Shown here: positions 37,292-56,646 of the stretch, in pieces
Layout of the letters: each line of letters starts with the position of its first letter
Position numbering within the stretch: the stretch's first letter is position 1
Source of the DNA: a virus
Direction: 5' to 3' (one strand)
Virus record (IMG/VR): IMGVR_UViG_3300042013_000056
Span: 1 to 64,000 of that record
Length of the DNA: 64,000 nucleotides
Program-made: the position numbers and the translations under genes
Notes under the pieces: generated by a model
The model's input: only the letters and a program-made list of their open reading frames with translations
Told to the model about the DNA's origin: nothing
Database searches by the model: none

Positions 37292-38104
37292 TTACGGGGT
37301 TTTTTTAACCTTTGCGGCCTTCGGCAGCTTAGGTTTGTTGATAATGGTTTGCTTCTGTCCATTCCAGCCTTCCCGCTGTTCTTTCACGGTGCCGGTAATG
37401 GTAAAGGTTTGGCCGATTTCAATTTCCTTGAAGCCTTGAGCAACCGAGTAGAACACAACCTCATTGCCTTCTGGCGTCTGTGCGATGTGCATCAGTGTAG
37501 GATATTGGGATTGGGTCCAAGATACGCGTTTGAGGGTCAACACCAGTTCAATGGCCTTGTCTACCTCACCAATGTAGCCGGGGAGTTCCACACCGGTTTC
37601 TTTGATGTAGTTGGTGGCGATGGTTACACATACCGCCATTTTGCCGTGGGCGTCTGTTTGCTGTGCAACCCAGAACAGATACCCAAGATCAACCACAGCG
37701 ATTTCAGCGGCGGTCATACCAGTGTATTTGCCAACAATGAACACACCGGCTTGAATCTGTTCAACCTTTTCAGCTTCCCATGCCGCTACGCGTTCAGCGT
37801 AGGCACGTTCTGAGGCTTCACGTTTGGCCGTGGCTTCGGCATCACGCACCCGGCGAATTTCGTTCAGCTCAAAATCCGCGTTGCCTTTGAATGGCAGCCC
37901 CATCAGAGCCGACATTTCAACCGCTTTAGATTCGGCGGTGTCCTTATCATTCGACAGGTTCTGAATGTAGTAATCATTCATTTCCTTGAATGATGTATCA
38001 CCCCAAACCACGGTGTCTAGGCACATTACGCGTAGGGTGTACATTGCAACTTTGTCACCGGTCGATATGAAAGTGTATTTTGCTTCGGAATTTGCTACTG
38101 CCAT
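37292..38104 (-). CDS. Phage protein with DUF3820-like motif and probable C-terminal OB fold
   Basis: GKYTG.T..EI...D.GYL.W; G.VKEQ....GQKQT. Confidence 0.7.
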   Translation of the reverse strand: MAVANSEAKYTFISTGDKVAMYTLRVMCLDTVVWGDTSFKEMNDYYIQNLSNDKDTAESKAVEMSALMGLPFKGNADFELNEIRRVRDAEATAKREASERAYAERVAAWEAEKVEQIQAGVFIVGKYTGMTAAEIAVVDLGYLFWVAQQTDAHGKMAVCVTIATNYIKETGVELPGYIGEVDKAIELVLTLKRVSWTQSQYPTLMHIAQTPEGNEVVFYSVAQGFKEIEIGQTFTITGTVKEQREGWNGQKQTIINKPKLPKAAKVKKTP

Positions 38105-38259
38105 GATCGTAACTCCCGGTAAGGTCCGGGGTAAGTCCCGGTTTGCCTTGCTTGTGGTTTATTCTACACCATGGTTTGATACAGTCAAGGGTTTGATACA
38201 AATATTTTTGAAAATAAAAAAGCCCCACCGACCGGCAGGGCTTGAGGTGTTGCGAAACG

Positions 38260-38529
38260 TTAGAGCGTCACAGTCTTGACTGTGGTTCGCTTCACGGTGC
38301 TGTCATAGTTGTCACACAACCATTGATGCCCCTTTGCAAACGTTTCATTGAAGTGTTCCAGCGTTGCGGCAACCACACCAGCGGGCAACCGTTCGCCTTT
38401 GTTGCCATAAAATTCGGCTTCGTCCTGTTTCAGATAGATCGCGTCTGCAATCACCACACCATTCAAGGTGATATCCGCGCAAGCCGGAATGCCACCGGCA
38501 ACAACTGTATAGACTTGAGGCATGTTCAT
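38260..38529 (-). CDS. Hypothetical protein
   Basis: SD plus terminator. Confidence 0.7.
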   Translation of the reverse strand: MNMPQVYTVVAGGIPACADITLNGVVIADAIYLKQDEAEFYGNKGERLPAGVVAATLEHFNETFAKGHQWLCDNYDSTVKRTTVKTVTL

Positions 38530-38535
38530 AATTCC

Positions 38536-39057
38536 TTATGCGGCCTGTTTCTGTTCAACAGCTACAGCTTTGAAAATCAGTTCACGTCGGCCCGGTCGTT
38601 TAACTTCGTCAACCTTGTAACCCATACGGACCACAAGCCCCGTCGATTCAGCCCAGCGCATTGCGTTGGATACGTGCATAAGTTTCATTTTCAACTTTTT
38701 GCGGGCTTGCTTAACGGTGAATTCTTGTCCGTTCTGTGCGTTGATGAATGTTACCAGACTACGGCGGGTTTTGGTCTGGTTTGCCGAGATTGGGCGACCA
38801 CCCAGAGACTTAGTATTACCGGTTTGAGTCAGTTCAACCACTTTAACCGGGGTTTCTACTGCATCCAGAGCTTTCAGACCGGCTGTAAGTTCTTCTACCA
38901 TTTTCAGGCGGGTAGCTTCACTGTCGTCGTGAATGCGCAGGGTTTCGACTGTGAAACCATCAACACCCGGCACAATGTTGCACATTTCGGCCCAGTTGTC
39001 GCCGTGTAGCTTCTTGGCGGCACGTACAGCGGATGATTTAGCTTTGTAAGTAGTCAT
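38536..39057 (-). CDS. Winged-HTH DNA-binding protein, paralog of 58439-58900
   Basis: GGR..S..Q, FTV, VSNA, PGRRELIFKAV. Confidence 0.7.
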   Translation of the reverse strand: MTTYKAKSSAVRAAKKLHGDNWAEMCNIVPGVDGFTVETLRIHDDSEATRLKMVEELTAGLKALDAVETPVKVVELTQTGNTKSLGGRPISANQTKTRRSLVTFINAQNGQEFTVKQARKKLKMKLMHVSNAMRWAESTGLVVRMGYKVDEVKRPGRRELIFKAVAVEQKQAA

Positions 39058-39151
39058 GTTCGAATTCCTTTATCAAATTGGCTTTCAGTGGTTTGTATCT
39101 TAATCGTTGTTTCTGGTTACGTCAAGGGTTTAATCAAACTATTTTCTATTT

Positions 39152-39550
39152 CTATCCAAGCCCCAAATAAACACCAGACAACACCAACACCCAACACCAG
39201 AAAATTACATAGTGTTTCCGCCGTCGCTTGCGGGTGTGTGGGTCTTCCTGTTCGATAATGTCACACCTATCAGGGTACAGCTCAAAGTCGGCTGATACAG
39301 GCTCACAGACCGGTTTAAACATCGATTCAGGGTCACGGGTCAGTGGGTGATATTCAATCGGCCAACCCATCGCCCGACAATATGACGCCCAAGCCTTGTT
39401 CCGTTTCAGAATTAGAGCGTGCTTTGTATGGGCATAGGTTACCAAATCAATAGCCTTTGCCGATAATGCTTGATCTAATTCAATTTCCTGTTTGTCTATA
39501 TTGTCCAACCGTTTCGCGGCTGGTATTGCCTGAAAACTAAGTTTATCCAT
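39152..39550 (-). CDS. Hypothetical protein with C-terminal TM anchor
   Basis: ORF with hydrophobic C-terminus. Confidence 0.65.
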   Translation of the reverse strand: MDKLSFQAIPAAKRLDNIDKQEIELDQALSAKAIDLVTYAHTKHALILKRNKAWASYCRAMGWPIEYHPLTRDPESMFKPVCEPVSADFELYPDRCDIIEQEDPHTRKRRRKHYVIFWCWVLVLSGVYLGLG

Positions 39551-39734
39551 ACATCACCAGAACCCCCAGAAACGGGGCATACAATAGGATTACAGTAACG
39601 ATACCATAGGTTTTGATACAATGCAACATCAGTTGTTGATAATATTTCATTGATCAGCCTCCTTTTCGTTGATGTGAGTATGATAGAACTATTTCAGGTG
39701 ACTGTCTAGTGGTTTGATACAAATATTTTTAGAT

Positions 39735-39850
39735 AAAAAGAACCCGCCAGATCGGGGAATCATGGCGGGTCAAATGAGGTGTTTCAGGGTTGGTTGTGAT
39801 TAGCCAGTCAACGAACTAACCACAGGGAGCGCACATAGTCCGTATGTGAC
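39735..39850 (-). ncRNA. Candidate ~115-nt small RNA
   Basis: TTGACA-16-TATTAT promoter (39857-39884), two hairpins, terminator 39735-39770; no credible ORF. Confidence 0.4.
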
Positions 39851-39967
39851 TGCCGAATAATAAACGATTTACATAAAGTGTCAAATAAACCCGATAAAAG
39901 GCTTGACAGATTGACAGATTGGATCACATCTTAAATCAGTGGCAATAAGCCACTGATTTTATAAGAC

Positions 39968-40285
39968 TTATTGGATGCCACCATAACGCCAGCTTTCGAC
40001 TTTCTTGGCGTCCAGCAAGTCGGCAACCGTTCCGCGTGGCTTGTTCTTAGCTGGGGCTTTCCACCCGGCAGACTTCCACAAATTGCCTTCTTGATCCATG
40101 AACCCCCAGCAATAACGGCGGTCGCTTACAGTTCCGTCCTGATTCACGTCCGTGCTAACAAGGCGTGTCCAGACCTTACCCGGTTCAGCAGATAGAAGCT
40201 TTTGACCATGCGGGCCACCGGTAGCGTTCAGAGTGGTGGTTGCGAATTCCAGACCTTCGGCTAGTTGTTTGATCAATTCCGACAT
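39968..40285 (-). CDS. Conserved phage hypothetical protein
   Basis: G.LWKSAGWKAPAK..RG motif; start set at MSELIK. Confidence 0.75.
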   Translation of the reverse strand: MSELIKQLAEGLEFATTTLNATGGPHGQKLLSAEPGKVWTRLVSTDVNQDGTVSDRRYCWGFMDQEGNLWKSAGWKAPAKNKPRGTVADLLDAKKVESWRYGGIQ

Positions 40286-40361
40286 TTTGTAACCCTCAAT
40301 TCGTTTGGTGTGTTTGTATTCTATCAAACCCCCAGCCGATTGCAAGGGGTTTGATTCAATT

Positions 40362-40736
40362 TTACATATCTTTTTTGCGCTTCACGTCTTGAGCATATCC
40401 ACCGATGTGCAATGCTTCCCGTACTTGCCAGTTACCCAACGCGTAACCACTTTCAGCGGTCATGTAACCGTTTTGAATCAACCACTCGCCCCCGGTAACC
40501 AAATAATGGTTATCATGACCCGGACGCATATCGGCAAAGCCACCCAATTCTTGCCATTCGCCACCAACCAACGCCGACACATAAATTTTGTGGTAGCAGT
40601 TAGTCATAGAATCATACCACCGAACACCTTTGATCGATATTTCTTGAAAGTTGTCGCATTTCGCGGTCAATGCGGCGGTGACCATTTTAGGGCCGTCTTG
40701 AGTTTGAATGCGGTAGTCGATGGTTTTCATGATCAT
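40362..40736 (-). CDS. Hypothetical cassette protein
   Basis: Own promoter and SD. Confidence 0.7.
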   Translation of the reverse strand: MIMKTIDYRIQTQDGPKMVTAALTAKCDNFQEISIKGVRWYDSMTNCYHKIYVSALVGGEWQELGGFADMRPGHDNHYLVTGGEWLIQNGYMTAESGYALGNWQVREALHIGGYAQDVKRKKDM

Positions 40737-40768
40737 GTTCCTGTGGTTGGGTGTGGTTGTATTGTAGC

Positions 40769-40793
40769 GGGGTTGTCGGTTTGATACAACCCC
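40769..40793 (-). promoter_or_regulatory. Palindromic promoter; centre GGTTTGA on +
   Basis: GGGGTTGTC-GGTTTGA-TACAACCCC (1 mismatch). Confidence 0.8.
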
Positions 40794-40807
40794 TATTTCG
40801 ATTCTTT

Positions 40808-41251
40808 TTAGTAGCCCCAGCTTTCACGGGCGTAGCGGTCAAGGTCGCCCATCAATTCAGCTTTGGACTTGTACAGGGGGCCAACAGTGCGCGGCATGCC
40901 TTGCGGGTTCAATACGCTGTCATGAATGTCTACCACACGCCACAGGCCGTGGCCTTGATGCCAGTAGCCTAAACCAGCATAACGGGTTTTCATGATTTTA
41001 AACGTACTGGTGATATTTGCAGATGCTGGCACGGTTTCGGCCTTTTCAATTTCATACGTGAACAGGGTTTGCCCGTGGCTACCGCGAAACTCGGCACCGT
41101 CCTTTACATCAAACCAGCTATTAAAGTCGCTGACTTGCAACACGCCGTCATGAACACGAACATCATAATAACGCCCGTCGATATAGATACCGTTCCCGAT
41201 ATTCAAATGGGCGCGGATTTTGCGAGCTGCTGCGTTAGGTGTGAGTATCAT
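40808..41251 (-). CDS. Hypothetical cassette protein
   Basis: Own promoter and SD. Confidence 0.7.
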   Translation of the reverse strand: MILTPNAAARKIRAHLNIGNGIYIDGRYYDVRVHDGVLQVSDFNSWFDVKDGAEFRGSHGQTLFTYEIEKAETVPASANITSTFKIMKTRYAGLGYWHQGHGLWRVVDIHDSVLNPQGMPRTVGPLYKSKAELMGDLDRYARESWGY

Positions 41252-41331
41252 TTTCTAATTCCTTATGTCGGTTGGTGTAGGGTTATTCTATCAAACCACC
41301 CGAAAGAGTCAAGCGGTTTGATGTAATTATT

Positions 41332-41538
41332 TTACTGTTCTTTGATACTGGTAGTGTTGCCGTTCAACATGGCTATAACAAACACCGTGTTTAGATGTTT
41401 GATGATATACCTACGGTGTGCGCCTTTCTCACTTTCCCAGTCCTGCAAGTCCAACACCACACCATAGCGGCAAAGTTCTTTTTTGACGGCTTCCAGTTCG
41501 TTAGCCTGTATCGCTATCAGGATTTGCAATAGTGTCAT
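41332..41538 (-). CDS. Hypothetical cassette protein
   Basis: Start set at MTLLQ after GGGAG SD. Confidence 0.65.
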   Translation of the reverse strand: MTLLQILIAIQANELEAVKKELCRYGVVLDLQDWESEKGAHRRYIIKHLNTVFVIAMLNGNTTSIKEQ

Positions 41539-41609
41539 GTCGATAACTCCCGGTTGGTGTATGGGAATGATAGAACCCCCTGACAATGATGTCAAGGGGT
41601 TTGATAGAA

Positions 41610-41915
41610 TTATTTTGCGTTCAATTTGTCCAGCCGTTGCTGTTGACGGAACGCCGACAATTCTTTTTTCCAACGCTTGCAAAACCATTTGTTATATGTC
41701 TGCAATGCCTTGAACGCAATTTCAAAGTTTGCCGAATCACGCCGCCATTCCGGGCTTGCCTTGACGCTATCCGGGGTTAACCCCATTGGCCCTACCGGGT
41801 ACTTGTTCAAATCATTAGACGCAGCATCACAGGCCGCGTTTAGTTGATCTTGCTTAGCCTTTGCCTGTTCAAAAGACATAAGCGAATTACCGATTTCTTC
41901 TAGGGACATGAACAT
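41610..41915 (-). CDS. Hypothetical cassette protein
   Basis: GPMGLTPDSVK motif; start after SD. Confidence 0.7.
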   Translation of the reverse strand: MFMSLEEIGNSLMSFEQAKAKQDQLNAACDAASNDLNKYPVGPMGLTPDSVKASPEWRRDSANFEIAFKALQTYNKWFCKRWKKELSAFRQQQRLDKLNAK

Positions 41916-41990
41916 TTTGATAACTCCCGGTTGGTGTGGTTGTATTCTATCAAACCCCACGCCGATTGCAAGGGGTTTGATAAATTCTTT

Positions 41991-42296
41991 TTACTTGACC
42001 AGACCCGCCGCCATGCAAGCCTTTGCCCAGTAGCGTTGGGAACGTGCATCCTTGCCGGGGTGAATCGCTTTAATGGTGTGGCTACCGTCCGTGTGTAGCT
42101 CGCCTTCGGTAGACAGCCAATCCGGTGTGCCGGGGTAGCAATTCGACTGTGTGAAGCCTTCGCGGTCGATATAGTCCACCAGTTCGCGGAAACCATAATC
42201 AACATCTTCAAATTCAAAACCGCGTTCATCAGTTTCGCCCGCTTCTATTGCTTCTTGCGACCATTCCTCATACGTTACGGAAATTTTGATACCCAT
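41991..42296 (-). CDS. Conserved hypothetical cassette protein
   Basis: TYE.WS.E..E.GETDERGF. Confidence 0.7.
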   Translation of the reverse strand: MGIKISVTYEEWSQEAIEAGETDERGFEFEDVDYGFRELVDYIDREGFTQSNCYPGTPDWLSTEGELHTDGSHTIKAIHPGKDARSQRYWAKACMAAGLVK

Positions 42297-42376
42297 GATA
42301 CAAACCCCTGTTTTCGTTGGTGTGCCGGTATTCTATCAAACCGCCTGATAGTGTCAAGCGGTTTGATAAATTCTTT

Positions 42377-42703
42377 TTAGTCCGTCCGCTTGCCGATTGT
42401 TCGGGCGACGATAGCCACAAATTCCTCATACTCGGCCTTTGCAGCCTCATCACACGCCAGCCATTCACCGAAGTTCGGGGATTGGATCATTACGATATCT
42501 TCGCGGCTGTCAACCCCTTTCGGAATCAAATGCTGTTCATAGCTCGCCACACTGCCGACCGAATGAATCCGAAAGATAAACGCCCGGTAACCGAATATAA
42601 TCGATTGGTCAAGCGTATGCATGGTGAACTTGTATTTAAATTTCTTGCCGCCGTTCTTGACCAGTGCGGCAACAAACGCTTTTGTCATTGGATGTTGTTT
42701 CAT
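42377..42703 (-). CDS. Hypothetical cassette protein
   Basis: Start set at MKQHP. Confidence 0.65.
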   Translation of the reverse strand: MKQHPMTKAFVAALVKNGGKKFKYKFTMHTLDQSIIFGYRAFIFRIHSVGSVASYEQHLIPKGVDSREDIVMIQSPNFGEWLACDEAAKAEYEEFVAIVARTIGKRTD

Positions 42704-42811
42704 GTTGTAGCCCCTTTCCGGTTGGTGTGTGGTCATTATGGGGCTATATCAAACCCCTGTCAACAGGTTTGATACAAATATTTTGAGCAACAAAAAAGCC
42801 CCGAAGGGCTT

Positions 42812-43021
42812 TTAGTTGATACCTTGCAACTCCCGCCAGATGTCGCCCAACCGCTGTTCAACATCTTGAATCGATATGTAACCCTGTAGCTCGCTTTCCC
42901 CTGTAAATTTAGGGCTTGCCAGATACGCCCGGAACGCTTGCAGGCTGTCATCTGCTAGGTTAATGCGGCTGGTAAGGTTGTCTATCTCGACTTGCTTGGC
43001 GTTGACTGTAGGCATTTTCAA
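42812..43021 (-). CDS. Hypothetical cassette protein
   Basis: Promoter and terminator flanks. Confidence 0.65.
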   Translation of the reverse strand: MKMPTVNAKQVEIDNLTSRINLADDSLQAFRAYLASPKFTGESELQGYISIQDVEQRLGDIWRELQGIN

Positions 43022-43094
43022 ACCCCTGTTTTGGTTGGTGTGGGGTCATTATGATGCAACATCGAACGCACGTCAAGCGGTTTGATGCAATTAA

Positions 43095-43310
43095 TTAAGC
43101 AGCCATAGCCGCCGCTTCGGCTGCAAAACGCTTTAGACGGGCTTTGCAGTTACGCCACGACCTACGGTCACTAGGCGTTGAACTGGTAAACACTGGTTTA
43201 GTTCCCGGCATGAAAAATTTTAGGTGTTTGCCGTTTGTTTGTTCTATACCCCAACCCAAACCCTTTGCATAGTCCACTAGGTCGCGCATATCACCATTTT
43301 TAATGTTCAT
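43095..43310 (-). CDS. HicA-like toxin-fold protein
   Basis: GW.IE.T.GKH.KF..PG......STPSD.R motif. Confidence 0.7.
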   Translation of the reverse strand: MNIKNGDMRDLVDYAKGLGWGIEQTNGKHLKFFMPGTKPVFTSSTPSDRRSWRNCKARLKRFAAEAAAMAA

Positions 43311-43373
43311 ATCAAACCCTTATGTTTTATTGATAATAGATTGTTGCATTGAAACAAAATAAAGTCAAGCGGT

Positions 43374-43724
43374 TCAAGCGGTTTTGATTTCGTGTATCAG
43401 TTCCAGAACTTGCGGGCATTCTGACAGTTCATCACCTAACCGCAAGTGTTTAAAGTCCTTTGATGCAACCCGGTACAGGTGTCGGAATAATCCGCTGTTG
43501 ATGTAGTCCGGGTGTGAGTATGCAGCAACCACCCGACCCAATTTGCTGCTATGGCTAGCCACAAGCAACACAGCGACCGAACGCCCGTGAACCTGATAGA
43601 CATATCGGTTTGAGCCGTTGAACGTCTTAAACAGCGTTACAGACGGCCCAACCAAATAGCCGGTTTCCTTATCGGTGATGGTTGGGCATTGGTTACAGGG
43701 TGCAAGTAGACTATCCATAACCAA
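43374..43724 (-). CDS. Hypothetical protein
   Basis: ORF in array. Confidence 0.55.
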   Translation of the reverse strand: MVMDSLLAPCNQCPTITDKETGYLVGPSVTLFKTFNGSNRYVYQVHGRSVAVLLVASHSSKLGRVVAAYSHPDYINSGLFRHLYRVASKDFKHLRLGDELSECPQVLELIHEIKTA

Positions 43725-43734
43725 CCCCTATCGA

Positions 43735-44148
43735 TTAGACCGATTTGATAATTTCTGCGTTCTTTTCATACCATGCCAACATTTTTTGCAGGGCTTCGGC
43801 TGGTGTCTTGCCTTTGATCTTGCGGAATTTCAAACCAGCGTTACGCAAGTGATGCGACCATGATAACAATTCAATGTCAAATGAATTTGCGACGTTGTGT
43901 TGACTGTTACCATTCAAGTGCATCATGAAACGCATTTGACCGGTTGCATTCAACAGGATACCGCTTGCGCATTCGGATTTGTCCGCGACGTTGTAAAAAT
44001 CAATTACCACATTGTCACCCAAACTTTTGTAAGGGCGGGCTTTTGCCAGAAAGGTCGGGAACAGTTGTTTTATGCCAGTGTTAAAGGCTTCGCAACCTTC
44101 GGCGGCGTTGGCTACTGCATCTTGAATCAATTGGATTTGAGTTTTCAT
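43735..44148 (-). CDS. Hypothetical cassette protein
   Basis: Own palindromic promoter. Confidence 0.75.
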   Translation of the reverse strand: MKTQIQLIQDAVANAAEGCEAFNTGIKQLFPTFLAKARPYKSLGDNVVIDFYNVADKSECASGILLNATGQMRFMMHLNGNSQHNVANSFDIELLSWSHHLRNAGLKFRKIKGKTPAEALQKMLAWYEKNAEIIKSV

Positions 44149-44185
44149 GTTCCGGCTTCCTGTGGTTGGTATGGGTTAGTGTAGC

Positions 44186-44210
44186 GGGGTTGTAGGTTTG
44201 ATACAACCCC
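44186..44210 (-). promoter_or_regulatory. Palindromic promoter; centre GGTTTGA on +
   Basis: GGGGTTGTA-GGTTTGA-TACAACCCC. Confidence 0.85.
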
Positions 44211-44225
44211 CTTTAGCAATTTATT

Positions 44226-44546
44226 TTAGTACCGGGTTACTTTGTCCGGGTTGTCTTTAATCCATTGTTGCAACCGGGCCTGACCTTCGGCTTCTGATTC
44301 TTTAATCAGTTCCGACACCTTATGCGGGAACCAATACGCTTCGCAATCCATATAGATAAACCGGTCATACTTCGACAAATCGTTGGTTGTGTCAAACCCG
44401 ATAATTTCACGACCGGGGAAAATAACCCCGTAATCGTTGATGAATGTAACGATGTCACCGACCTTTAGGTCACACCCTACCGGGGCTTCTTGATCCAGTT
44501 TGGCGGCGAATGCTTCGATGTCGCCGTGGCCTGTACGATTTTTCAT
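44226..44546 (-). CDS. Conserved hypothetical cassette protein
   Basis: VGD.V.F.NDYGV.F...IIGF...YWFP. Confidence 0.75.
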   Translation of the reverse strand: MKNRTGHGDIEAFAAKLDQEAPVGCDLKVGDIVTFINDYGVIFPGREIIGFDTTNDLSKYDRFIYMDCEAYWFPHKVSELIKESEAEGQARLQQWIKDNPDKVTRY

Positions 44547-44583
44547 GATTTCGGTTCCTGTGGTTGATGTTGGGTAGTGTAGC

Positions 44584-44608
44584 GGGGTTGTAGGTTTGAT
44601 ACAACCCC
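44584..44608 (-). promoter_or_regulatory. Palindromic promoter; centre GGTTTGA on +
   Basis: Same 25-mer as 44186. Confidence 0.85.
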
Positions 44609-44616
44609 TATTTTGA

Positions 44617-44991
44617 TTATTCGGTGAAATAATCCCGGCTCAAACTGTGCGACCCGAATTCAACGTGTGGAACCTTCAAATCAATGTCATAATCGAACAA
44701 CCCGACACCGTGGCCCATTGCTTGCATGGCTGCATAATGGCCCCATTCTTGCGCCTTGAGTTCGTTGGTAGCGTTGTTGCTTTCGTACAAGCTTGCAACC
44801 GGCATGCCGTGCATCAGTTCGAGCTGAAAAGTCAGGGTATCAGCCGCATGCAACGCCGCCGAATCGATCACAGCGGGCAATTGATCCATGATTTCGCCGT
44901 GCAATGATTGGCCGCAATCGTCTGCCATGTCAGCATAAGCCGAACCGAAAAACGCTAGTGCCATGCCTTTCTTGATTTGTTCTTGAGACAT
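44617..44991 (-). CDS. Hypothetical cassette protein
   Basis: Start set at MSQEQ after AGGAG SD. Confidence 0.7.
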   Translation of the reverse strand: MSQEQIKKGMALAFFGSAYADMADDCGQSLHGEIMDQLPAVIDSAALHAADTLTFQLELMHGMPVASLYESNNATNELKAQEWGHYAAMQAMGHGVGLFDYDIDLKVPHVEFGSHSLSRDYFTE

Positions 44992-45107
44992 TTTTGTAAC
45001 TCCTGATTTGGTTGGTGTGTAGAGATTATGGGCTTGATTGATATGGCTGTCAACAGGTTTGATACAAATATTTTTAGATATGAAAAAGCCCCGGTTAAGG
45101 GGCTTCT

Positions 45108-45305
45108 TTACTTGACAAGCTCTAAATCCGCTTGGTTCCAATACTTGCAGCCGCGCAAATCTTGATCTAACCAAACTTCGCCGTCTTTACCGTAACAGGC
45201 CCGGATATTCGCCTGATGGTTGTCTTCCCGACCATCCGGGCAACCGTCCCAACTTGCCAACACATCCGGCTTTAGTTGTACGGTGTCGCCTTTCTTGAGT
45301 GACAT
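45108..45305 (-). CDS. Hypothetical protein
   Basis: SD plus terminator. Confidence 0.65.
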   Translation of the reverse strand: MSLKKGDTVQLKPDVLASWDGCPDGREDNHQANIRACYGKDGEVWLDQDLRGCKYWNQADLELVK

Positions 45306-45315
45306 GATTAACCCC

Positions 45316-48811: not shown

Positions 48812-48916
48812 AATGAAAATAATTTCAGCCAGACATGGCATGGTGTATGCAGTGACAAAAATCATGCCAAGTCAAATCGCAGGCTCCTTCGGTGATTTCC
48901 TCCGAGCCGCCCCGGT
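48812..48916 (-). ncRNA. Candidate ~105-nt small RNA (or 16-aa micropeptide)
   Basis: TTGCAT-17-TATACT promoter (48923-48951), then two hairpins; no long ORF. Confidence 0.35.
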
Positions 48917-49015
48917 AACACCAGTATAATTCTATCAAACCAACAATGCAACCTTTGATACAAATATTTTTAGGCAATAAAAAACCCCAGCGGTCCGGGG
49001 CTTTGTGTGGGGGTA

Positions 49016-49198
49016 TCACACCCCCAAACGATACCGATAGACGTAATAAAGAATTTGACCAGCAAACACAATACAGCATACCAACACAGCCGCAACAAAC
49101 CAGACATTAGCCGTCGTCTGGTTACGGCTGTAACGGTTGATAGCGAACCACAGACAGATTAGCAGTAGAACGCCAACCGTAACACCCAGAGTAATCAT
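49016..49198 (-). CDS. Small membrane protein
   Basis: Two TM segments. Confidence 0.65.
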   Translation of the reverse strand: MITLGVTVGVLLLICLWFAINRYSRNQTTANVWFVAAVLVCCIVFAGQILYYVYRYRLGV

Positions 49199-49257
49199 AT
49201 GGCACCTGTTGATTAGTTAATAACCTATAGAACCATACAATCAATGGTGTGTCAAGG

Positions 49258-49464
49258 TTAAAGTTTATGCAGCTCTGTGCATTCGTATACGTGAACTGTG
49301 CAGCCGTTCGGCAACTGGTAATAGTTCATATTCCAGCGGATTGCATCAAACTCCTTTCCGTCATGTTCCAACAGATACGAGCGTTCATCATTTGAATAAT
49401 GACCATAGCGAAAGCCCGCTGTGGTCACCGTGTTGGATTTCAATTTGATTCGTACACGTTCCAC
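49258..49464 (-). CDS. Hypothetical protein
   Basis: ORF in array. Confidence 0.6.
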   Translation of the reverse strand: MERVRIKLKSNTVTTAGFRYGHYSNDERSYLLEHDGKEFDAIRWNMNYYQLPNGCTVHVYECTELHKL

Positions 49465-49665
49465 AATACACCCTCAAACAAAACTGTAAATGATTGCGAC
49501 AACACCACACACCAGAATAGCCAGAAACATCCATGTAATAACCGCCGCACCGTCGCGGTCCAATTCTTTTTCCACTTGAAATTCGTTCAATTCGTTCATG
49601 TTGTCACCTTCTTGGTATGATTTGATATAGGGTCATTCTACAGGCTTTTGGGCATAATGCAAGGG

Positions 49666-49887
49666 TTAGATTTGGTCCGGGGTCATATGGCATTCATTCA
49701 AATGTTTAGCCATTTCACCGTGTGTATGACCATGGCGGGCCAGCATCCCATCCGCCAACGATACCAAATGAAGATTAGATACCCCGGTGTTTGCCGGGTC
49801 ATACCCGATAATGTATTGTTCAGAGCCATTTTCAGACCATACACGCCGACCGGGTTTGATATCTGTAGCTTCCCATTCAAATTTCAT
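49666..49887 (-). CDS. Hypothetical protein
   Basis: Start set at MKFEW. Confidence 0.6.
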   Translation of the reverse strand: MKFEWEATDIKPGRRVWSENGSEQYIIGYDPANTGVSNLHLVSLADGMLARHGHTHGEMAKHLNECHMTPDQI

Positions 49888-50116
49888 TTTGAGCCTCGAC
49901 AGGTTTGATAGAGTTGATTGGTTTGATTGGGTTGCCCCAGTCGTCGTGCGTTTCACTGCCCCGATATGGGCTAGCCTTGATTGTGATAACCCGGCGAATT
50001 ACAACACCAGTACCACAACACAGGGCCACTACTGTTAAATGCCGGTCGGATTGTTCCACGTTCCATTCGGCGGCGGTATTCAACCGCAACTCACCTTTAC
50101 AGTTTGGACATTCCAT
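49877..50116 (-). CDS. Zinc-finger hypothetical protein
   Basis: CPNC...CCG. Confidence 0.6.
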   Translation of the reverse strand: MECPNCKGELRLNTAAEWNVEQSDRHLTVVALCCGTGVVIRRVITIKASPYRGSETHDDWGNPIKPINSIKPVEAQNEI

Positions 50117-50508
50117 TATTCATTACCCCAGACAGAACGCAAGCAACTAGCCAGCGACGGGAACTTATCACCGTCAAACTTTCCCTTTGTACCCTTGGGA
50201 CGGTAAAAGAATTGATTGTCAATCTGTTTCAGAACGTGGCCGATGGTCTTACCATCCAGCGTAATTGGCTCAACTACCACAAGCTTTGCATATGCCTTGA
50301 TATCAGCTTTCAGCTTACCCATGGTTGGGGCTTTCTTGCGGTCCCCATTGAACGCTACAGCCTGATATTCACGACGGGCGCGCAGGTATTGCACCTTGAA
50401 CACAACACCGCCACAAACGACTTCCACGACGTTCAGGCCGGTGCTAATGATACCCACAGTCAGTTCTGATAGTTCGAGTGGAGTATCCTGCTTTTCGTAA
50501 ATGATCAT
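50116..50508 (-). CDS. Hypothetical protein
   Basis: FFYRPKG...FPSLASCLRS. Confidence 0.65.
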   Translation of the reverse strand: MIIYEKQDTPLELSELTVGIISTGLNVVEVVCGGVVFKVQYLRARREYQAVAFNGDRKKAPTMGKLKADIKAYAKLVVVEPITLDGKTIGHVLKQIDNQFFYRPKGTKGKFDGDKFPSLASCLRSVWGNE

Positions 50509-50950
50509 TACACAGCCCCTGTATAGGTTGTTAGTTCAGATTCGCGGAATGTACCAGCATCACGGCCAGAATTTCCAAAGGTGCAAGAATAGAATCCAAA
50601 GTCATTAACGCTTTTGATGGTCATCCAAAAAACGCCACCCTTGGCTTGAACCGGGTCACCTTTGGAAAATTTGTTCGCTATCATGATTCAGTTCCTTGTT
50701 TCGGTTGGTGTATGGTCATTCTAGCACGCACACACCAACCGTCAAGGGGTTTGATAGAATTATTTTAGGTGGCGCTCCCAAATGTGAATAATGATACAGC
50801 CGTCCCGCATCTGCATCTTGTACCCGGCCCATTTATCCGACATGAAATTACCGGAAAAATCGTACACAACACCAACCCATTTAGACAGTCTCGCTAAATT
50901 CTTTTGTGCCTTACCAGCCGGGAGCGTGATGGTTCGCATGGTGTCACCTG

Positions 50951-51214
50951 TTAGGCTTGAACGCCAAAGTCATAGAACAGTTGATAATCGTTCTTTTCAA
51001 CCGCTGCAATTGCTTCAAGAATATACGACTGCATTTGCGTATGATCTTCTTCGCATGTCACCGCTTTAGCCCGAACGCGTGCTACAGCCTTTTCGTCTTT
51101 GGTGTCAGCGGTTGCCAGTTGAAACGACATCATATGATGTTTAACACCTTGACTGTTGATATACGAGATATCTACAAACGCCTTGATAAAGCCGGGGGTA
51201 TGGATCATTGGCAT
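50951..51214 (-). CDS. Hypothetical protein
   Basis: AGGAG SD. Confidence 0.6.
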   Translation of the reverse strand: MPMIHTPGFIKAFVDISYINSQGVKHHMMSFQLATADTKDEKAVARVRAKAVTCEEDHTQMQSYILEAIAAVEKNDYQLFYDFGVQA

Positions 51215-51226
51215 AGCGGTAACTCC

Positions 51227-51469
51227 TTATAGATAGTCATTGATGTAGCGGGCAAGCTCAGCCAATATAACGGTTTTTTCAGTGTTGTAGCACTGCATAA
51301 AGTCATTGGCAGAAAAAACGTATACAGCATGATTCAGTGGGTCTGATGGGATTTTGTACACATCCAACCGGATTTTCCGCCCACTTGGCGCAATCATTAC
51401 AGATTCTATAACCTTTTCAGCTTCGCGACCTTCAAGGCATGCGATCTTTTTGATTTCACCGATAGCCAT
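51227..51469 (-). CDS. Hypothetical protein
   Basis: After promoterless hairpin linker. Confidence 0.65.
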   Translation of the reverse strand: MAIGEIKKIACLEGREAEKVIESVMIAPSGRKIRLDVYKIPSDPLNHAVYVFSANDFMQCYNTEKTVILAELARYINDYL

Positions 51470-51535
51470 GATGTTAATTCCTTTTCGGTTGGTTTCTACT
51501 GACTCAGCCCCATTTAAGGGGCTTTGTCGTTTGGG

Positions 51536-51811
51536 TTATTCCGGGTTGCGGAATCCGTCCGAGTTTTCAGCTTCCAGTTCGGCAAGCGTTTTCAGCTTCG
51601 GTGCCGGGGCGTTGAAATCAATTTTCGTACCACCACAGCGATAATGGGTTACGGTCACTTCAAACCCGCCAGCATCGGGGAACCGTTCTTTAATGATGTT
51701 GAACAGGGCTTGTGCCTCATGTTCGCTAACCGCCGAGCGTGCATCTGTAGCGAACAAGTGACGGCCTTTATAGCTAACGTTGATTTCGTAATGCGATTGG
51801 ATGCCAGCCAT
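51536..51811 (-). CDS. Conserved hypothetical cassette protein
   Basis: YEINVS..GRH.FAT...FP...GF.VTVT. Confidence 0.75.
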   Translation of the reverse strand: MAGIQSHYEINVSYKGRHLFATDARSAVSEHEAQALFNIIKERFPDAGGFEVTVTHYRCGGTKIDFNAPAPKLKTLAELEAENSDGFRNPE

Positions 51812-51853
51812 GATATCGATTCCTTATTTCAGTTGGTGTAGGGATATTGTAGC

Positions 51854-51878
51854 GGGGTTGTATGTTTGATACAACCCC
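51854..51878 (-). promoter_or_regulatory. Palindromic promoter; centre TGTTTGA on +
   Basis: GGGGTTGTA-TGTTTGA-TACAACCCC. Confidence 0.85.
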
Positions 51879-51888
51879 TTTGATGAAA

Positions 51889-52143
51889 TTAATTTGGGAA
51901 CATGTAATAGCATGTATCTATGTAATATTCAATCCCATTCGTATCATCATGCACAAGGAAAACTTTGTTGGTGACTAGGCCGTGTTTGATTGCTTCTTGC
52001 TGGCATTCAGTCACCAGCGAATCAACGTAGTGTGTTGCAACCGAATCAGAGCATTCATTGACGGCGCGAATTAGGGTTATTGCATCTTGACGGCAAAGCG
52101 AGTTAACAGCGAATTTGCGGTCGGGGCTGGTCCAGTTCGACAT
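51889..52143 (-). CDS. Hypothetical cassette protein
   Basis: Own promoter. Confidence 0.65.
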   Translation of the reverse strand: MSNWTSPDRKFAVNSLCRQDAITLIRAVNECSDSVATHYVDSLVTECQQEAIKHGLVTNKVFLVHDDTNGIEYYIDTCYYMFPN

Positions 52144-52227
52144 TTTGAAATTCCTTGTTTGCGTGTTTCGGTTGGTGTGATTGAATGATAAAACCCCCTG
52201 ACAACCATGTCAAGGGGTTTGATAAAA

Positions 52228-52560
52228 TTATTCGTATCTGTCGTGGATTTTTGCCGCACCGTGCCACGATTCACAACCTGTCATTTTCCGCATCGCATCA
52301 GAGAACCGCGAATCACTGGTTGCCCCGAAGTTCCCGCCGAACATGTGCCAATTCTTGGACGTTGCCGGGTCTTCACACACGATATAGACCACGCCTTTAA
52401 CGGTTGGGTGATTGACCAGCCATGCCGCTGGGGCGTCCTCAGAAGGCTCTAGCGGGCCTTCAACGTTAACCAGCGTTAGACGGCTATACCGTGAAGATAC
52501 ACCGCCGTTAGTGCAATCGTAACCATCAGCGGAACGGTATACAGAGATTAGCAAGCCCAT
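52228..52560 (-). CDS. Conserved hypothetical protein
   Basis: DCTNGGVSS...MFGGNF..TSDSRF...IHDRYE. Confidence 0.8.
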   Translation of the reverse strand: MGLLISVYRSADGYDCTNGGVSSRYSRLTLVNVEGPLEPSEDAPAAWLVNHPTVKGVVYIVCEDPATSKNWHMFGGNFGATSDSRFSDAMRKMTGCESWHGAAKIHDRYE

Positions 52561-52624
52561 GATGTTAATTCCTTTTCGGTTGGTTGGTGTTTCTACTGAC
52601 TCAGCCCCATTTAAGGGGCTTTGT

Positions 52625-52894
52625 TTAATTCTTACTCAATTTATGCGTGCCTATCTGCACCTTGCCATCTTCAAGGATTTTTACGTCCTTGAGATAATCC
52701 CCGTCGATCTTGACCCATTCATTACCAGCACCGAAACTCATTTGCTTTTCAAGCCGTACCGATATGGGTTGAAATTTAATGCGGTAGACGGTCCCACTAG
52801 GCGCAACCACTTGCATATGCCCCCAGCGATCCGTAGCCCAGCCCAAACCCTCTAAGGCTAATTGCACCACTTCCAAATGAGATTTCTTTTTCAT
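52625..52894 (-). CDS. Hypothetical cassette protein
   Basis: GW..DRWGH.Q...YR.K.Q..SVR.EK. Confidence 0.7.
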   Translation of the reverse strand: MKKKSHLEVVQLALEGLGWATDRWGHMQVVAPSGTVYRIKFQPISVRLEKQMSFGAGNEWVKIDGDYLKDVKILEDGKVQIGTHKLSKN

Positions 52895-52934
52895 GGTTGT
52901 CTACCTGTTTCGGTTGGTGTATGAGCATTGTATA

Positions 52935-52959
52935 GGGGTTGTATCAAACCTACAACCCC
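52935..52959 (-). promoter_or_regulatory. Palindromic promoter; centre inverted (TCAAACC on +)
   Basis: Same 25-mer as 47470. Confidence 0.85.
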
Positions 52960-52968
52960 TATTTCGAT

Positions 52969-53292
52969 TTATTTTTGCTTGCGGTGTGCGTGTGCGACCT
53001 CATTAAAGAACCGCTTAGGGACTTTCTTATATTCTCGCCCATCAGCATCACAGAACCATTCCGGCAGTGTGCCGTTTTCACCGTCGCTCATGTATGCCCA
53101 TGCTCGGCGGTCGTCGTCATCGCGTACCAGAACGATATCCCACCGGCTGCCCTCGGTTGGTTCAGTCTTGGACATTGCCAACGCTTCTTTATACGTCCGT
53201 GAGTGCCAATGCTCTATAACATCATCTTTCGCGAATTCCGGTTGATCGATATCCGATACTTCTTCACAGTCCCACTCATATGCAACAGCCAT
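52969..53292 (-). CDS. Hypothetical protein
   Basis: ORF in array. Confidence 0.7.
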   Translation of the reverse strand: MAVAYEWDCEEVSDIDQPEFAKDDVIEHWHSRTYKEALAMSKTEPTEGSRWDIVLVRDDDDRRAWAYMSDGENGTLPEWFCDADGREYKKVPKRFFNEVAHAHRKQK

Positions 53293-53295
53293 GAT

Positions 53296-53679
53296 TTAAA
53301 CCCCTTTGATTGCTTGGATTTTGCCATCGGCAAAGTAAACCACGATATTGGACAACAGTTCGCCAATATCATCTTTTGTATTTGGTTCACGTACATAAAA
53401 ATCAATGATAGCCCGCCCATCGTCTGAGAGTTCCACACCTTTAGTGAATTCAGACCATTCAACCGGTGACCACAAATCGGTATCAGACCAGTCGTCAAGG
53501 TCTGCCAACCGAGTGACGCGGGCAATGTTGATATTGTTTTCCACACCTTGAACTTTGATGTTGACACGCTCGCCAACTTCGACTGTTACACGTTTTAGGC
53601 CAACTTCTTTGCGAGCCGCTTCACGTATTTGCTGGCATTCTTTGGTGCTAGGCTTCCAAACATTACCGATGATCGACAT
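53296..53679 (-). CDS. Hypothetical cassette protein
   Basis: Own promoter. Confidence 0.7.
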   Translation of the reverse strand: MSIIGNVWKPSTKECQQIREAARKEVGLKRVTVEVGERVNIKVQGVENNINIARVTRLADLDDWSDTDLWSPVEWSEFTKGVELSDDGRAIIDFYVREPNTKDDIGELLSNIVVYFADGKIQAIKGV

Positions 53680-53723
53680 TTCAAAATTCCTTGTTTCGGT
53701 TGGTGTGATAGCAGTATAGCAAA

Positions 53724-53745
53724 GGGGTTGGTTTGATACAACCCC
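53724..53745 (-). promoter_or_regulatory. Palindromic promoter variant with 3-nt deletion
   Basis: GGGGTTG-GTTTGA-TACAACCCC; TTGTAT-17-TATACT retained. Confidence 0.75.
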
Positions 53746-53757
53746 TATTTGATTAAA

Positions 53758-53976
53758 TTATTCAGCCAGAAACTTAGCATATGCGGCTTCACGTTTCGCC
53801 GTGCATATGTCGCGGGAATCGGTCAATTGAACTTTTTCAGCACAACCAGCGGAATAGCCAGCCTGAAACGCTTTAAAGCCATTCGGTTGGGCTTCTGGAT
53901 TGAATGGGTTTTCTTTATAGAACCCAAGCGAGCCAGCCCTATAAGCGTATTCAAAGATTTCCTTTTTGCTAGCCAT
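53758..53976 (-). CDS. Hypothetical cassette protein
   Basis: Own promoter. Confidence 0.65.
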   Translation of the reverse strand: MASKKEIFEYAYRAGSLGFYKENPFNPEAQPNGFKAFQAGYSAGCAEKVQLTDSRDICTAKREAAYAKFLAE

Positions 53977-54017
53977 TTCGTGAACCCCTGATTTGGTTGG
54001 TGTAGGGATATTGTAGC

Positions 54018-54042
54018 GGGGTTGTAGGTTTGATACAACCCC
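54018..54042 (-). promoter_or_regulatory. Palindromic promoter; centre GGTTTGA on +
   Basis: Same 25-mer as 44186. Confidence 0.85.
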
Positions 54043-54050
54043 TATTTGAT

Positions 54051-54270
54051 TTAAATTTTGTGTGGTGCGAACGTGATACCTTGGGCCTGACCTTCAAATC
54101 CCCGGCAAACCGCTTGGGCCTTGATTGCAGCAGCTTCAGCCAGTTCCAAAGTATCGAACTGCATAGCCAGCTTGACAGAGCCCATGCAAGCGGTTCCCCA
54201 AGTCGGGCACCATGCGTGCAAGTAATCAGAACCAAACTTGCCATACGTGCGTTTTATTACATAAGCCATG
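54051..54270 (-). CDS. Hypothetical cassette protein (start approximate)
   Basis: MAYVIKR after AAAGGA SD. Confidence 0.6.
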
Positions 54271-54307
54271 ATCAAATCCTTTTCCGTTGGTGTATGAGCA
54301 TTGTATA

Positions 54308-54332
54308 GGGGTTGTAGGTTTGATACAACCCC
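54308..54332 (-). promoter_or_regulatory. Palindromic promoter; centre GGTTTGA on +
   Basis: Same 25-mer as 44186. Confidence 0.85.
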
Positions 54333-54341
54333 TATTTTCAA

Positions 54342-54815
54342 TTATTTGTGTTTGGTCATGGCTTCGGTAAGGTCTGCAATCAGCTTGCGTTGTTGGCCAA
54401 TTTCCCATTCGATTTGGTCAACCACGTACACCGCTACGCCTTGTTCTTTGTTACCGTTGGTGACTTTGCGACCCATTGCCTTGGCTCTATGCAAATCATT
54501 GTAACGGGTGGCGTTTTCGATATTACCAATAACCGCTGTATCGGCCACGTTGTCAAACACAATCGGCATACGACCCGAACCGGTGACAATGATGTAACCT
54601 TTAGGGGCTGTTGCGTTGAACGCTTCCAGTCTAGCTATGTAAGCCTCAGAGTCAGTGATAGCGGTTTTAATGAATTGCAGGGCTTCTGGTTTGATTTGCA
54701 TGGTCTTGGCCTTCTGGTTGATGTGCTTGAGGCACAGGGCGAACGTGGCTGCATAGTTGTCACCGGCTTGAATGATTTCTTTCGTCATCTTGTGGGCTTG
54801 GGCAAATGCGTTCAT
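54342..54815 (-). CDS. Hypothetical cassette protein
   Basis: MN.F..AH..T...GD.Y.ATF..CL N-terminus. Confidence 0.75.
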   Translation of the reverse strand: MNAFAQAHKMTKEIIQAGDNYAATFALCLKHINQKAKTMQIKPEALQFIKTAITDSEAYIARLEAFNATAPKGYIIVTGSGRMPIVFDNVADTAVIGNIENATRYNDLHRAKAMGRKVTNGNKEQGVAVYVVDQIEWEIGQQRKLIADLTEAMTKHK

Positions 54816-55039
54816 GTTCGTGTTCCCTGTTTCGGTTGGTGTGTAGAGATTATGGGACTATATCAAACCCCTGTCAACAGGTTTGATACAAATATTTTAA
54901 ATTATTTTCATAGGCAATTGCCATGCCAACACTGATTTGCGGTCGTCAATCCATTTTCTCATATTTTTCGTGGTGCTGTCAACTACAACAAACAAAATAA
55001 AACCCGGCTGATTAGACCGGGTTTGGCATGGTGTTTGAT

Positions 55040-55264
55040 TCAATAGGCAGTGTGGGTTTTCAGTCGTACAAAATGTTTGCCGTTTGGCAGGTCAATAACA
55101 ACTTCGACGCCACCAACGCACAATTGATAGTCACCGTTGATTGTCAGCCAATGCAACGTGCCTTCAAAGTGGCTATCAGTGATAGTCCCGAGGGTTTCGG
55201 TGTCATTGTTAATCATGGCTTTCAGATTCAACAACGCATGATGATTGTAAGAAGTATTAGACAT
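55040..55264 (-). CDS. Hypothetical protein
   Basis: Coupled ORF. Confidence 0.6.
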   Translation of the reverse strand: MSNTSYNHHALLNLKAMINNDTETLGTITDSHFEGTLHWLTINGDYQLCVGGVEVVIDLPNGKHFVRLKTHTAY

Positions 55265-55650
55265 TACCCACGCCCCCAGATTTCATTATCAGCAATCCCG
55301 AACGCTTGCATAACATCAGCCATCGATGCATCAGGCATGCCCGCCAGTTCCAGAACCGTCGCTCGGATCATATCCCGGCTTTCAGTCATTAACGCGATGT
55401 CTTTATCAGACAGTTTGATATAGCCAATCATGCCCAGCTTTGTATGTGCTTTGATCAGGTCAACCAAACGCGGCTTGAGTTCGTCAGCGGTTTGACGGAT
55501 ATCAACCCGGCTAAACATATGGGATTTGTGGTTAGCCAGTTCATGAGCGGCTTGATCCATATTATCGAACGGTTCGGAAATGAACTTGAGTTCTTCGATG
55601 ATTTCCGAATCGGTTTGGGTAAAGCTACCAGCTATTACGGTGAAAGACAT
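55264..55650 (-). CDS. Hypothetical cassette protein
   Basis: Own promoter. Confidence 0.7.
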   Translation of the reverse strand: MSFTVIAGSFTQTDSEIIEELKFISEPFDNMDQAAHELANHKSHMFSRVDIRQTADELKPRLVDLIKAHTKLGMIGYIKLSDKDIALMTESRDMIRATVLELAGMPDASMADVMQAFGIADNEIWGRG

Positions 55651-55725
55651 GGTGTAACTCCTGTTTGCGTTTGTGTGATTGAATGATACAACCCCCTGAC
55701 AACATCGTCAAGGAGTTTGATAGAA

Positions 55726-55998
55726 CTATTTCATCCAGTTGTTCATGGTACGAATTGAGATACCACGCGGGCGACTCTGATACTTAAACGAGTATTCCAG
55801 CCATTCCCACGCCTTACCAGCACGAACCATGCCCATTAGGCGTTCAAGCTTACCGATACGGCGGAACACCTTGAGGCTAACAAACTGTGGGCTTTCCCAC
55901 TGATAGCCATCCTCAGAACCCACACGAACAAACCCATGGATAGACAATAGGTGGTCGCGTTCGGCTTCAAGTGCTTTGTAATATGCGGTTTTGGTCAT
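55726..55998 (-). CDS. Hypothetical cassette protein
   Basis: Own promoter. Confidence 0.65.
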   Translation of the reverse strand: MTKTAYYKALEAERDHLLSIHGFVRVGSEDGYQWESPQFVSLKVFRRIGKLERLMGMVRAGKAWEWLEYSFKYQSRPRGISIRTMNNWMK

Positions 55999-56067
55999 GT
56001 CGATAACTCCCGGTTGGTGATTGAATGATAAAACCCCTTAACCGAGTAGTCAAGGGGTTTGATAGAA

Positions 56068-56445
56068 TTATTCTGCTTTGCGTTCGATATCCCGGAAATA
56101 CCCTTGGGCATCCATCACAGCATATTGATCGCTACCATACCTAGGATCAGTTTCCAGCCACATAGCCGGGTCAAGCTTCCCACCGGCCTTGATATGAGCT
56201 GTAACGCGGTCACAGAGTATCTGAATGGCTTCCTGCGCTTGTTCACGTTCATCAGGAAAGAAAACCATCCCGTCACAATCTTCGCCACCGTCTACGGCTT
56301 TAGTAGAATCGAACTTGACCGAATGCACCCAGCGTTGACCGTTCGGGGCTTCAACCATCACATAGAAGCGTTCGCCTATGTAATCTTCGCCGTCCTCAGT
56401 CACGCCAGCCTTGAAAGCATCCGATCCGATAAAAGCTTCTAACAT
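56068..56445 (-). CDS. Hypothetical cassette protein
   Basis: Own promoter. Confidence 0.7.
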   Translation of the reverse strand: MLEAFIGSDAFKAGVTEDGEDYIGERFYVMVEAPNGQRWVHSVKFDSTKAVDGGEDCDGMVFFPDEREQAQEAIQILCDRVTAHIKAGGKLDPAMWLETDPRYGSDQYAVMDAQGYFRDIERKAE

Positions 56446-56520
56446 GGTAAATCCTCCGATTGGTTGAATGCTAGATTAGCACAGCACCAATCGAAGTCAA
56501 GAGGTTTGATACAAATATTT

Positions 56521-56646
56521 TTATTGAATCACCAATATAACCGTAGAAAGAAGAAAAGCTATTAACCACACAACCGCAAATAAATTGCTTCTAACATCCA
56601 AATTCCACGCAATCAACCCGACGATTAGAACCACTATAAGAGCCAT
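56521..56646 (-). CDS. Small membrane protein (41 aa)
   Basis: Not in track: MALIVVLIVGLIAW... Confidence 0.5.
   Translation of the reverse strand: MALIVVLIVGLIAWNLDVRSNLFAVVWLIAFLLSTVILVIQ

Follow-up and report, generated by a model that had tools for sequence, protein, structure and literature searches.

The first 64,000 bases (the window in what follows) of the viral record IMGVR_UViG_3300042013_000056, which is 182,859 bp in total, contain an array on the minus strand at 38105..56511, made up of 51 small open reading frames (ORFs) of 28-173 amino acids and the promoter of a 270-amino-acid gene at its boundary (37292-38104). This array is a new example, in a new phage lineage, of the known promoter-early stem-loop (PeSL) cassettes, and not a new system. 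We consider it likely that it represents the hyperplastic early region of a T4-like phage, assembled from PeSL-type cassettes. We also conclude that the repeated elements are good substrates for exchange, but that gene turnover does not require them.

The PeSLs of Arbiol et al. 2010 (PMC2839356) and Comeau et al. 2014 (PMC4122927) consist of an AT-rich tract, a strong sigma-70 promoter, a stem-loop formed by a G-run and a C-run, a Shine-Dalgarno sequence (SD) and an ATG, and they are concentrated among the ORFans of hyperplastic regions. Five placements of the stem-loop with respect to the promoter are described, among them over the -35 and -10 or between the two (PMC2839356), and the stem-loop positions observed here fit these subclasses. 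The experimental hallmarks of PeSLs are promoter and terminator activity and the formation of excised mini-circles (PMC2839356). The array has an AT-rich tract upstream of the -35 and an SD with a start codon at the 3' end of its elements; as far as sequence can test them, all PeSL features are present in its anatomy. The original prediction had set the array apart from PeSLs on the grounds of its different sequence. This distinction falls away because PeSLs are defined by their architecture and have lineage-specific sequences, which already differ between RB49/phi1, where they were found first, and the later PST/T4 and nt-1/KVP40 (PMC4122927).

The phage is assigned to the T4-like myoviruses because UvsW, the two ribonucleotide reductase subunits and an ATP-dependent ligase are among the proteins of the window and an AsiA homologue is encoded outside it (102868-103089, 57 bits; coordinates continue from the window through the whole record of ~183 kb, referred to as G000). 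The G+C content of the genome is 45%. Judged by UvsW, the nearest cultured relatives are the Pseudomonas phages Astolliot and Milchi at ~80% amino-acid identity; these make up a genus without a name, with Astolliot misfiled under Otagovirus (PMC11780129). An uncultured relative, IMGVR_UViG_3300046810_000101 (G001, 167.8 kb), has 91% identity in the 270-amino-acid gene bordering the array, and three more related contigs, two of them identical to each other, reach 75-89%. A megablast search of 50,697 phage records with an 8-kb piece of the array returned zero matches. The last 62 bases of the record, which begin at 182798, repeat the sequence found from 1240 onward, and an overlap of the contig ends is therefore probable, as in a circularly permuted or terminally redundant assembly.

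Architecture of the array and its elements

Genes were called with a codon-usage caller trained on the long ORFs of this phage. Between 38.2 and 56.5 kb, 38 of the 51 minus-strand ORFs have an upstream spacer of at least 40 nucleotides (nt), and a sigma-70-like promoter (at least 8/12) is found in 32 of these 38 spacers. The leader ACACCAACC occurs in 29 and the box TATCAAAC in 29, with both present in 26. An independent consensus scan gave 23 promoter-like sites scoring at least 10/12, every one of them on the minus (gene) strand. These counts agree with the earlier description of about 50 small ORFs, most with their own promoter and leader copy, and with its view of the spacers as composite promoter, terminator and leader units that each stand ahead of one or a few small ORFs. 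Its observation that stop codons often abut the elements also holds, as they lie ~2-12 nt ahead of the AT-rich tract and box, and the terminator that it called optional is present in canonical form in ~7 spacers.

Both conserved words, leader and box, exceed the shuffled expectation 6-10-fold and are concentrated on the minus strand at 38-56 kb. YATCAAAC has 74 matches where 7.5 are expected, and the leader ACACCAACCGAAAC, allowing up to 3 mismatches, has 55 where 8.6 are expected, almost every one of them within 40-55 kb on the minus strand. The array contains 72 pairs of exact direct repeats of at least 20 nt and 22 of at least 30 nt, the longest being a single pair of 67 nt, and repeat finding sorts the spacers into families of up to 10 copies each. 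The control interval 19000-38000 has 68 repeated 20-mers, with leader-like words at 25.1-25.9 kb within a 347-amino-acid ORF, which points to a structural or fibre-like gene with an internal repeat.

Class A elements have the order box, 2-3 nt, TTGAC-type -35, 16-17 nt and a TAnAAT -10. Of the 20 class A positions predicted originally, 18 are within a few bases of a minus-strand promoter-like site (at least 9/12) from the consensus scan, the sites near 48950 and 56500 being weaker or degenerate. Several subtypes can be recognized, with all elements on the minus strand. A tandem pair of forward boxes is present at 38105..38198 (boxes at 38174-38181 and 38191-38198, promoter TTGACT-16-TAGAAT, following a terminator-like hairpin at 38220-38243) and at 46205..46280 (following a terminator near 46290-46320). 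Another subtype has an inverted box in the promoter spacer or abutting the -10, where it provides the TG of an extended -10. Forward and inverted boxes are combined at 41252..41323, 41916..41982, 42297..42368 and 54816..54888, and the element at 42704..42774 reads box, TTGACA, inverted box, CATAAT after a terminator-like hairpin at 42794-42813. At 40286..40350 (TTGCAA-16-TAGAAT) the inverted box gives an extended -10. A further subtype places the -35 within a stem of 12-13 bp and has a T-run after the stem that runs into the -10, at 41539..41606 (12-bp stem, -20.3 kcal/mol), and similarly at 52144..52224 (13-bp stem, -21.1 kcal/mol), where a T-run and -10 follow. The other class A elements are at 39651..39719 (box, TAGACA-17-TATCAT), 43016..43087, 44992..45064 (after a terminator at 45086-45105), 45568..45651 (which has no leader), 48733..48805 (which has the 67-nt exact repeat in common with 54816-54888), 50685..50756, 55651..55722, 55999..56064 and 56446..56511, the last element of the array, with a weak -10 (8/12).

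As in the original prediction, 13 palindromic class B elements were counted; 12 belong to the GGGGTTG...CAACCCC type and the one at 46.9 kb is a variant. Each forms a hairpin with a 9-bp stem whose left arm gives a weak TTGTAT -35, with the -10 and leader coming next, and the box consists of the 7-nt loop and one hairpin arm. With respect to the -10, the asymmetric loop is forward in 9 elements and inverted in 4, and in G001 it is mostly inverted. On the minus strand, class B elements lie at 40731..40793, 44149..44210, 44547..44608, 48036..48101, 48350..48414 (-15 kcal/mol), 51812..51878, 53680..53745, 53977..54042 and 54245..54335, and those with an inverted loop at 47431..47494, 47755..47820 (-20.5 kcal/mol), 52895..52962 and 46895..46960, the last being the variant with a degenerate right arm. 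Across class B and several class A subtypes, folding energies of the stem-loops range from -15 to -21 kcal/mol (z -2.7 to -6), and an equally stable fold was reached in only 0-2 of 200 shuffles. A good sense-strand T-run follows the hairpin only in the class A stem type, while in class B the T-run is better on the antisense strand. Each of the ~7 canonical terminators is succeeded by a class A unit; besides those given above, an intrinsic terminator-like hairpin with a T-run lies inside the array at 55000..55024 (minus strand).

The leader ACACCAACCGAAAC, 14 nt long and highly conserved, starts ~6-7 nt past the -10 and is for this reason predicted to form the 5' end of the mRNA. Within the genome it is almost restricted to the array, and it is common to G000, G001 and other close relatives, and is not present in Astolliot or Milchi; more distant phages have leaders of other sequence that are likewise A/C-rich. 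We infer two possible roles for it, as an unstructured, translation-friendly 5' untranslated region and as a right-hand homology patch in exchange. A third spacer type is promoter-less and has a GC hairpin followed by a fixed leader. It occurs at 51492..51527 on the minus strand, with an identical 36-nt copy at 52589-52624, and the two precede the ORFs at 51227-51469 and 52228-52560. A matching hairpin-plus-leader spacer exists in Astolliot (~168.4 kb), and this type is therefore older than the box/leader type.

From this arrangement, we propose a unit consisting of an AT-rich tract with the box, a host sigma-70-type promoter with its -35 or promoter spacer inside a stable stem-loop, an A/C-rich leader, an SD, a small ORF and its stop. 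Host RNA polymerase would start at each unit soon after infection, and the stem-loops and the ~7 terminators would damp read-through, so that each gene would be expressed on its own. As to what the genes do, PHROGs searches of all 51 ORFs gave only unnamed PHROG matches and Pfam searches only two marginal matches. Since all 51 ORFs are without a named function, the host-takeover or anti-defence label given to them earlier is a guess. An Rfam search over 37-60 kb with E up to 0.1 had no match, and no tRNA was found in the window.

Beyond the array, 56520-57490 holds a run of small, very hydrophobic ORFs with G/T-rich codons that resemble small membrane peptides and account for the strong GC and AT skew in the 56-58 kb bin. 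The following AT-rich stretch at 57500-57900, between the array and a tightly packed block of small ORFs at 58-64 kb, is without a convincing ORF and may have a regulatory or origin-like role; two boxes lie within it at 57849-57875, on the opposite strand.

Gene turnover and apparent exchange of promoter cores

The original prediction regarded the spacers as both promoters and recombination sites and proposed scanning relatives for rearranged cassettes. Gene order in the array is indeed not common to the relatives. Counted as steps between successive common genes, order is kept between G000 and G001 in 14/32 steps in the array and in 121/131 elsewhere. The spacers themselves show a second pattern. 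For 18 of the 20 pairs of orthologous genes, the spacer's promoter part is nearer to a paralogous spacer of the same genome than to the orthologous spacer, with mean local scores of 33.9 for the paralog, 16.5 for the ortholog and 24.9 for the best non-orthologous spacer of the other genome. The 3' flanks show the same pattern as the promoter parts, being closer to paralogs. Leader, SD and gene can be near-identical while the promoter core is replaced, as in the G000/G001 pairs 40285/85395 and 54815/98325; for the element at 40286..40350, leader and gene are 91-95% identical to G001 and the promoter part is unrelated. Promoter cores thus appear to be exchanged independently of the flanking genes, with leader and SD staying with the gene, and the measurement of this across gene pairs goes beyond single-junction anecdotes. 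The zone between the -10 and the ATG is also the crossover zone reported for RB49 (PMC2839356, PMC4122927). Among more distant homologues of the ORF at 46969-47430, each stands behind a lineage-specific promoter, hairpin and CA-rich leader.

Closer junctions are available between Astolliot and Milchi (88-94% nucleotide identity), whose 17-kb arrays differ by at least 11 indels or replacements. Direct repeats of leader/SD or of AT-rich/box sequence flank insertions 1, 8 and 9 cleanly, and in insertions 3, 4 and 6 one of the two junctions falls in an element. We suggest that the phage's own homologous recombination machinery could cross over between units because these have identical stretches of 20-67 nt in common; the direct repeats counted above are ample for recombination of the T4 type. 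Such crossovers would delete, duplicate or exchange genes and would swap promoter cores, the leader and SD staying with the gene, and no dedicated recombinase would be involved.

The 183-kb genome gave no match to the tyrosine and serine recombinase families (PF00589, PF00239), while every control genome scored, which leaves general homologous recombination as the route of any exchange. This result also bears on an integron-like reading, by which the palindromic elements would be attC-like sites cut by a site-specific recombinase. The likeness, short ORFs between imperfect palindromes, is superficial only. Every cassette here has its own promoter, and junctions in the relatives are spread over leader, SD and AT-rich parts with no fixed site, which together with the missing recombinase makes this reading extremely improbable. 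An integron with IntI and attI/attC was rejected on the PF00589 and PF00239 result.

Several observations weigh against a special role of the elements in gene exchange. Element-free junctions break about as often as element junctions: in the comparison of the two kinds, adjacency is kept in 5/16 versus 2/5, and boundaries of gene presence or absence fall at 14/37 versus 8/13. The tightly packed, element-poor region at 57-66 kb is equally scrambled, with order kept in 5/13 steps, and three of nine Astolliot/Milchi indels are without an element at either junction. Spacer likeness could partly stem from selection for the same function and not from exchange. Strain variants were sought in a scan of viral contigs and a scan of metagenomes, where the best had 91% and 67% protein identity; a relative of G000 above ~90% identity was not found in those scans, so that junctions in G000 are not mappable to base level. 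Promoter and terminator activities are predicted from sequence.

The first of these points favour an alternative in which the spacers are only early promoters, alike through use of the same polymerase, a box-binding factor and efficient translation, while genes turn over by general or illegitimate recombination in which the elements have no causal part. The recurrence of CA-rich leaders in distant lineages with unrelated sequences also fits this alternative. It does not explain why non-adjacent spacers have near-identical stretches of 40-67 nt that include non-consensus positions, nor why 18/20 orthologous positions show a replaced promoter core, and the three clean indels flanked by direct repeats of element parts also argue against it. 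We regard it as unlikely. For the PeSL-type cassettes preferred here, the claim that the spacers are recombination sites stands in part: some breakpoints are inside elements and promoter cores are swapped, but breakpoints have no preference for elements. Because element-free junctions break about as often, the elements suffice for shuffling without being required for it, and the 'plug-and-play' reading of the original prediction is tempered to that extent.

The box as a genome-wide word

The original prediction treated the box as a promoter part only, and this proved too narrow, as it is also a genome-wide word enriched in coding DNA. We define the box word, of 8-11 bases, as TTGYATCAAA plus one flanking base. 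When the 8-mers of the genome are ranked by over-representation outside the array, overlapping parts of this word come first (57-66 observed versus 12-14 expected). Inside genes, it is 4-7-fold above synonymous-codon shuffles (z 11-15), and G001 shows the same for its own version. The word ends in TATCAAAC in G000 and in CATCAAAT in G001 and three other relatives, in promoters and genes alike, and the TATCAAAC/CATCAAAT substitution is seen in place between orthologous spacers. The 9-mer TTGYATCAA has 79 copies outside the array, in coding DNA and on both strands, with examples in the window at 6581, 10986, 22127, 36947, 59885 and 61382. Dispersed copies reach their highest density among the early/middle-type genes at 82-113 kb and are few in the late region, their orientation relative to transcription is not fixed (18 anti versus 17 same), and 6 of 17 alignable sites are kept between G000 and G001.

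Two simple identities were rejected. The dispersed boxes are not promoters, as a -10 at the right spacing accompanies 2 of the 79 copies versus 2.7 expected. The box is not an IHF site, as the dispersed copies are without a conserved downstream TTR and the spacing to the promoter TTG is one base different between G000 and G001. The most economical explanation is that the box is probably the site of a sequence-specific DNA-binding factor whose preference has shifted in this phage.

One form of this explanation takes the box as the operator of a phage-encoded global DNA-binding protein, similar to a stoperator, so that boxes around the class A -35 would shut early transcription off and the dispersed copies would serve the same protein. 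It is compatible with a PeSL-type array, and it would account for the rank of the word among 8-mers outside the array, its enrichment in coding DNA, the word version carried by each relative and the sites kept between G000 and G001. The orientation to transcription is unfixed, unlike that of stoperators, the geometry of the box varies among promoter subtypes, and no candidate box-binding protein emerged, although no search was aimed at one. We see this as a realistic possibility, with somewhat less than an even chance of being correct.

Class B suggests a second form, in which class A would be early and shut off once AsiA blocks -35 recognition, and class B would be in a middle mode, switched on by an activator other than MotA that binds the box. 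The genome encodes AsiA, and neither MotA domain (MotA_activ, MotCF) was found in a whole-genome search. AsiA without a known partner is a recognized open point in other T4-like phages (PMC1524935), and the class B box, spanning ~-32 to -25 and ending 11-12 nt ahead of the -10, is placed like the T4 Mot box relative to the -10. In addition, nt-1 carries a middle-promoter version of PeSLs, termed PmSLs (PMC4122927). Against this, the class B loop, and hence the box, has both orientations, word copies outside the array are not accompanied by a -10 beyond expectation, and no candidate activator emerged, with no search aimed at a box-binding protein. We consider this form quite unlikely. Middle promoters of the T4 MotA/AsiA type (Mot box TGCTT at -30) were rejected, as the MotA domains are absent and the box sequence is different. 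The combination of AsiA present and MotA absent in G000 is the same as that noted for Aeh1 and KVP40.

A box-binding factor might repress class A, activate class B in place of MotA or act in recombination. Tentatively, and with a less than even chance, the box might be the docking site of a phage-encoded DNA-binding protein that controls the whole array and may be the missing partner of AsiA in T4-like phages that have no MotA. In this phage its preference would have moved from CATCAAAT to TATCAAAC, and ~45 promoter boxes and dozens of in-gene sites would have changed to match; the box may also act as a left-hand homology patch for cassette exchange. The box ties the array to a genome-wide word that varies between sister phages, and offers a tractable handle on a putative DNA-binding factor in a phage with AsiA and without MotA.

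Comparison with known systems

Integron cassettes and lambdoid 'morons' resemble the array in that small accessory genes are gained as self-contained units. Unlike integrons, the array has no integrase and no fixed crossover site, and each unit has its own promoter; unlike morons, its flanks are conserved repeats. The stoperators of Cluster A mycobacteriophages (PMC9283540) are also short asymmetric words at early promoters that are scattered genome-wide, with related phages carrying differing versions of the word. In contrast, the phage studied here is lytic and T4-like, its dispersed copies are mostly in genes and on either strand, and no repressor is known.

The early promoters of the T4 family with UP-like A-rich tracts (Nolan et al. 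2006, PMC1524935) likewise use host sigma-70 and stand 5' to novel small ORFs, and co-expression with early genes is predicted for them. The -35 in the array is TTGACA-like, as in RB49, and not the GTTTAC of the T4-family early promoters, and the conserved upstream element is a specific word instead of a plain A-tract (PMC1524935).

PeSLs are the closest match. Both have an AT-rich tract, a near-consensus sigma-70 promoter, a G-run/C-run stem-loop over the -35 or spacer, an SD and an ATG, and both are set among the small ORFans of a hyperplastic region in a T4-like genome. Each also has sequences specific to its lineage and an association with indels or replacements between relatives, and in some cases here, as in PeSLs, the crossover appears to lie past the -10 and ahead of the ATG, or within AT-rich sequence. 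The array differs in its host clade and phage lineage, which are new (Pseudomonas-type, near Astolliot/Milchi), in its highly conserved 14-nt leader, predicted to be transcribed, and in its box of 8-11 nt, which is located at or beside the -35, is often duplicated or inverted and is also a genome-wide word. This extends the PeSL-type cassette organization to a little-studied T4-like clade of plant- and soil-associated Pseudomonas-type hosts.

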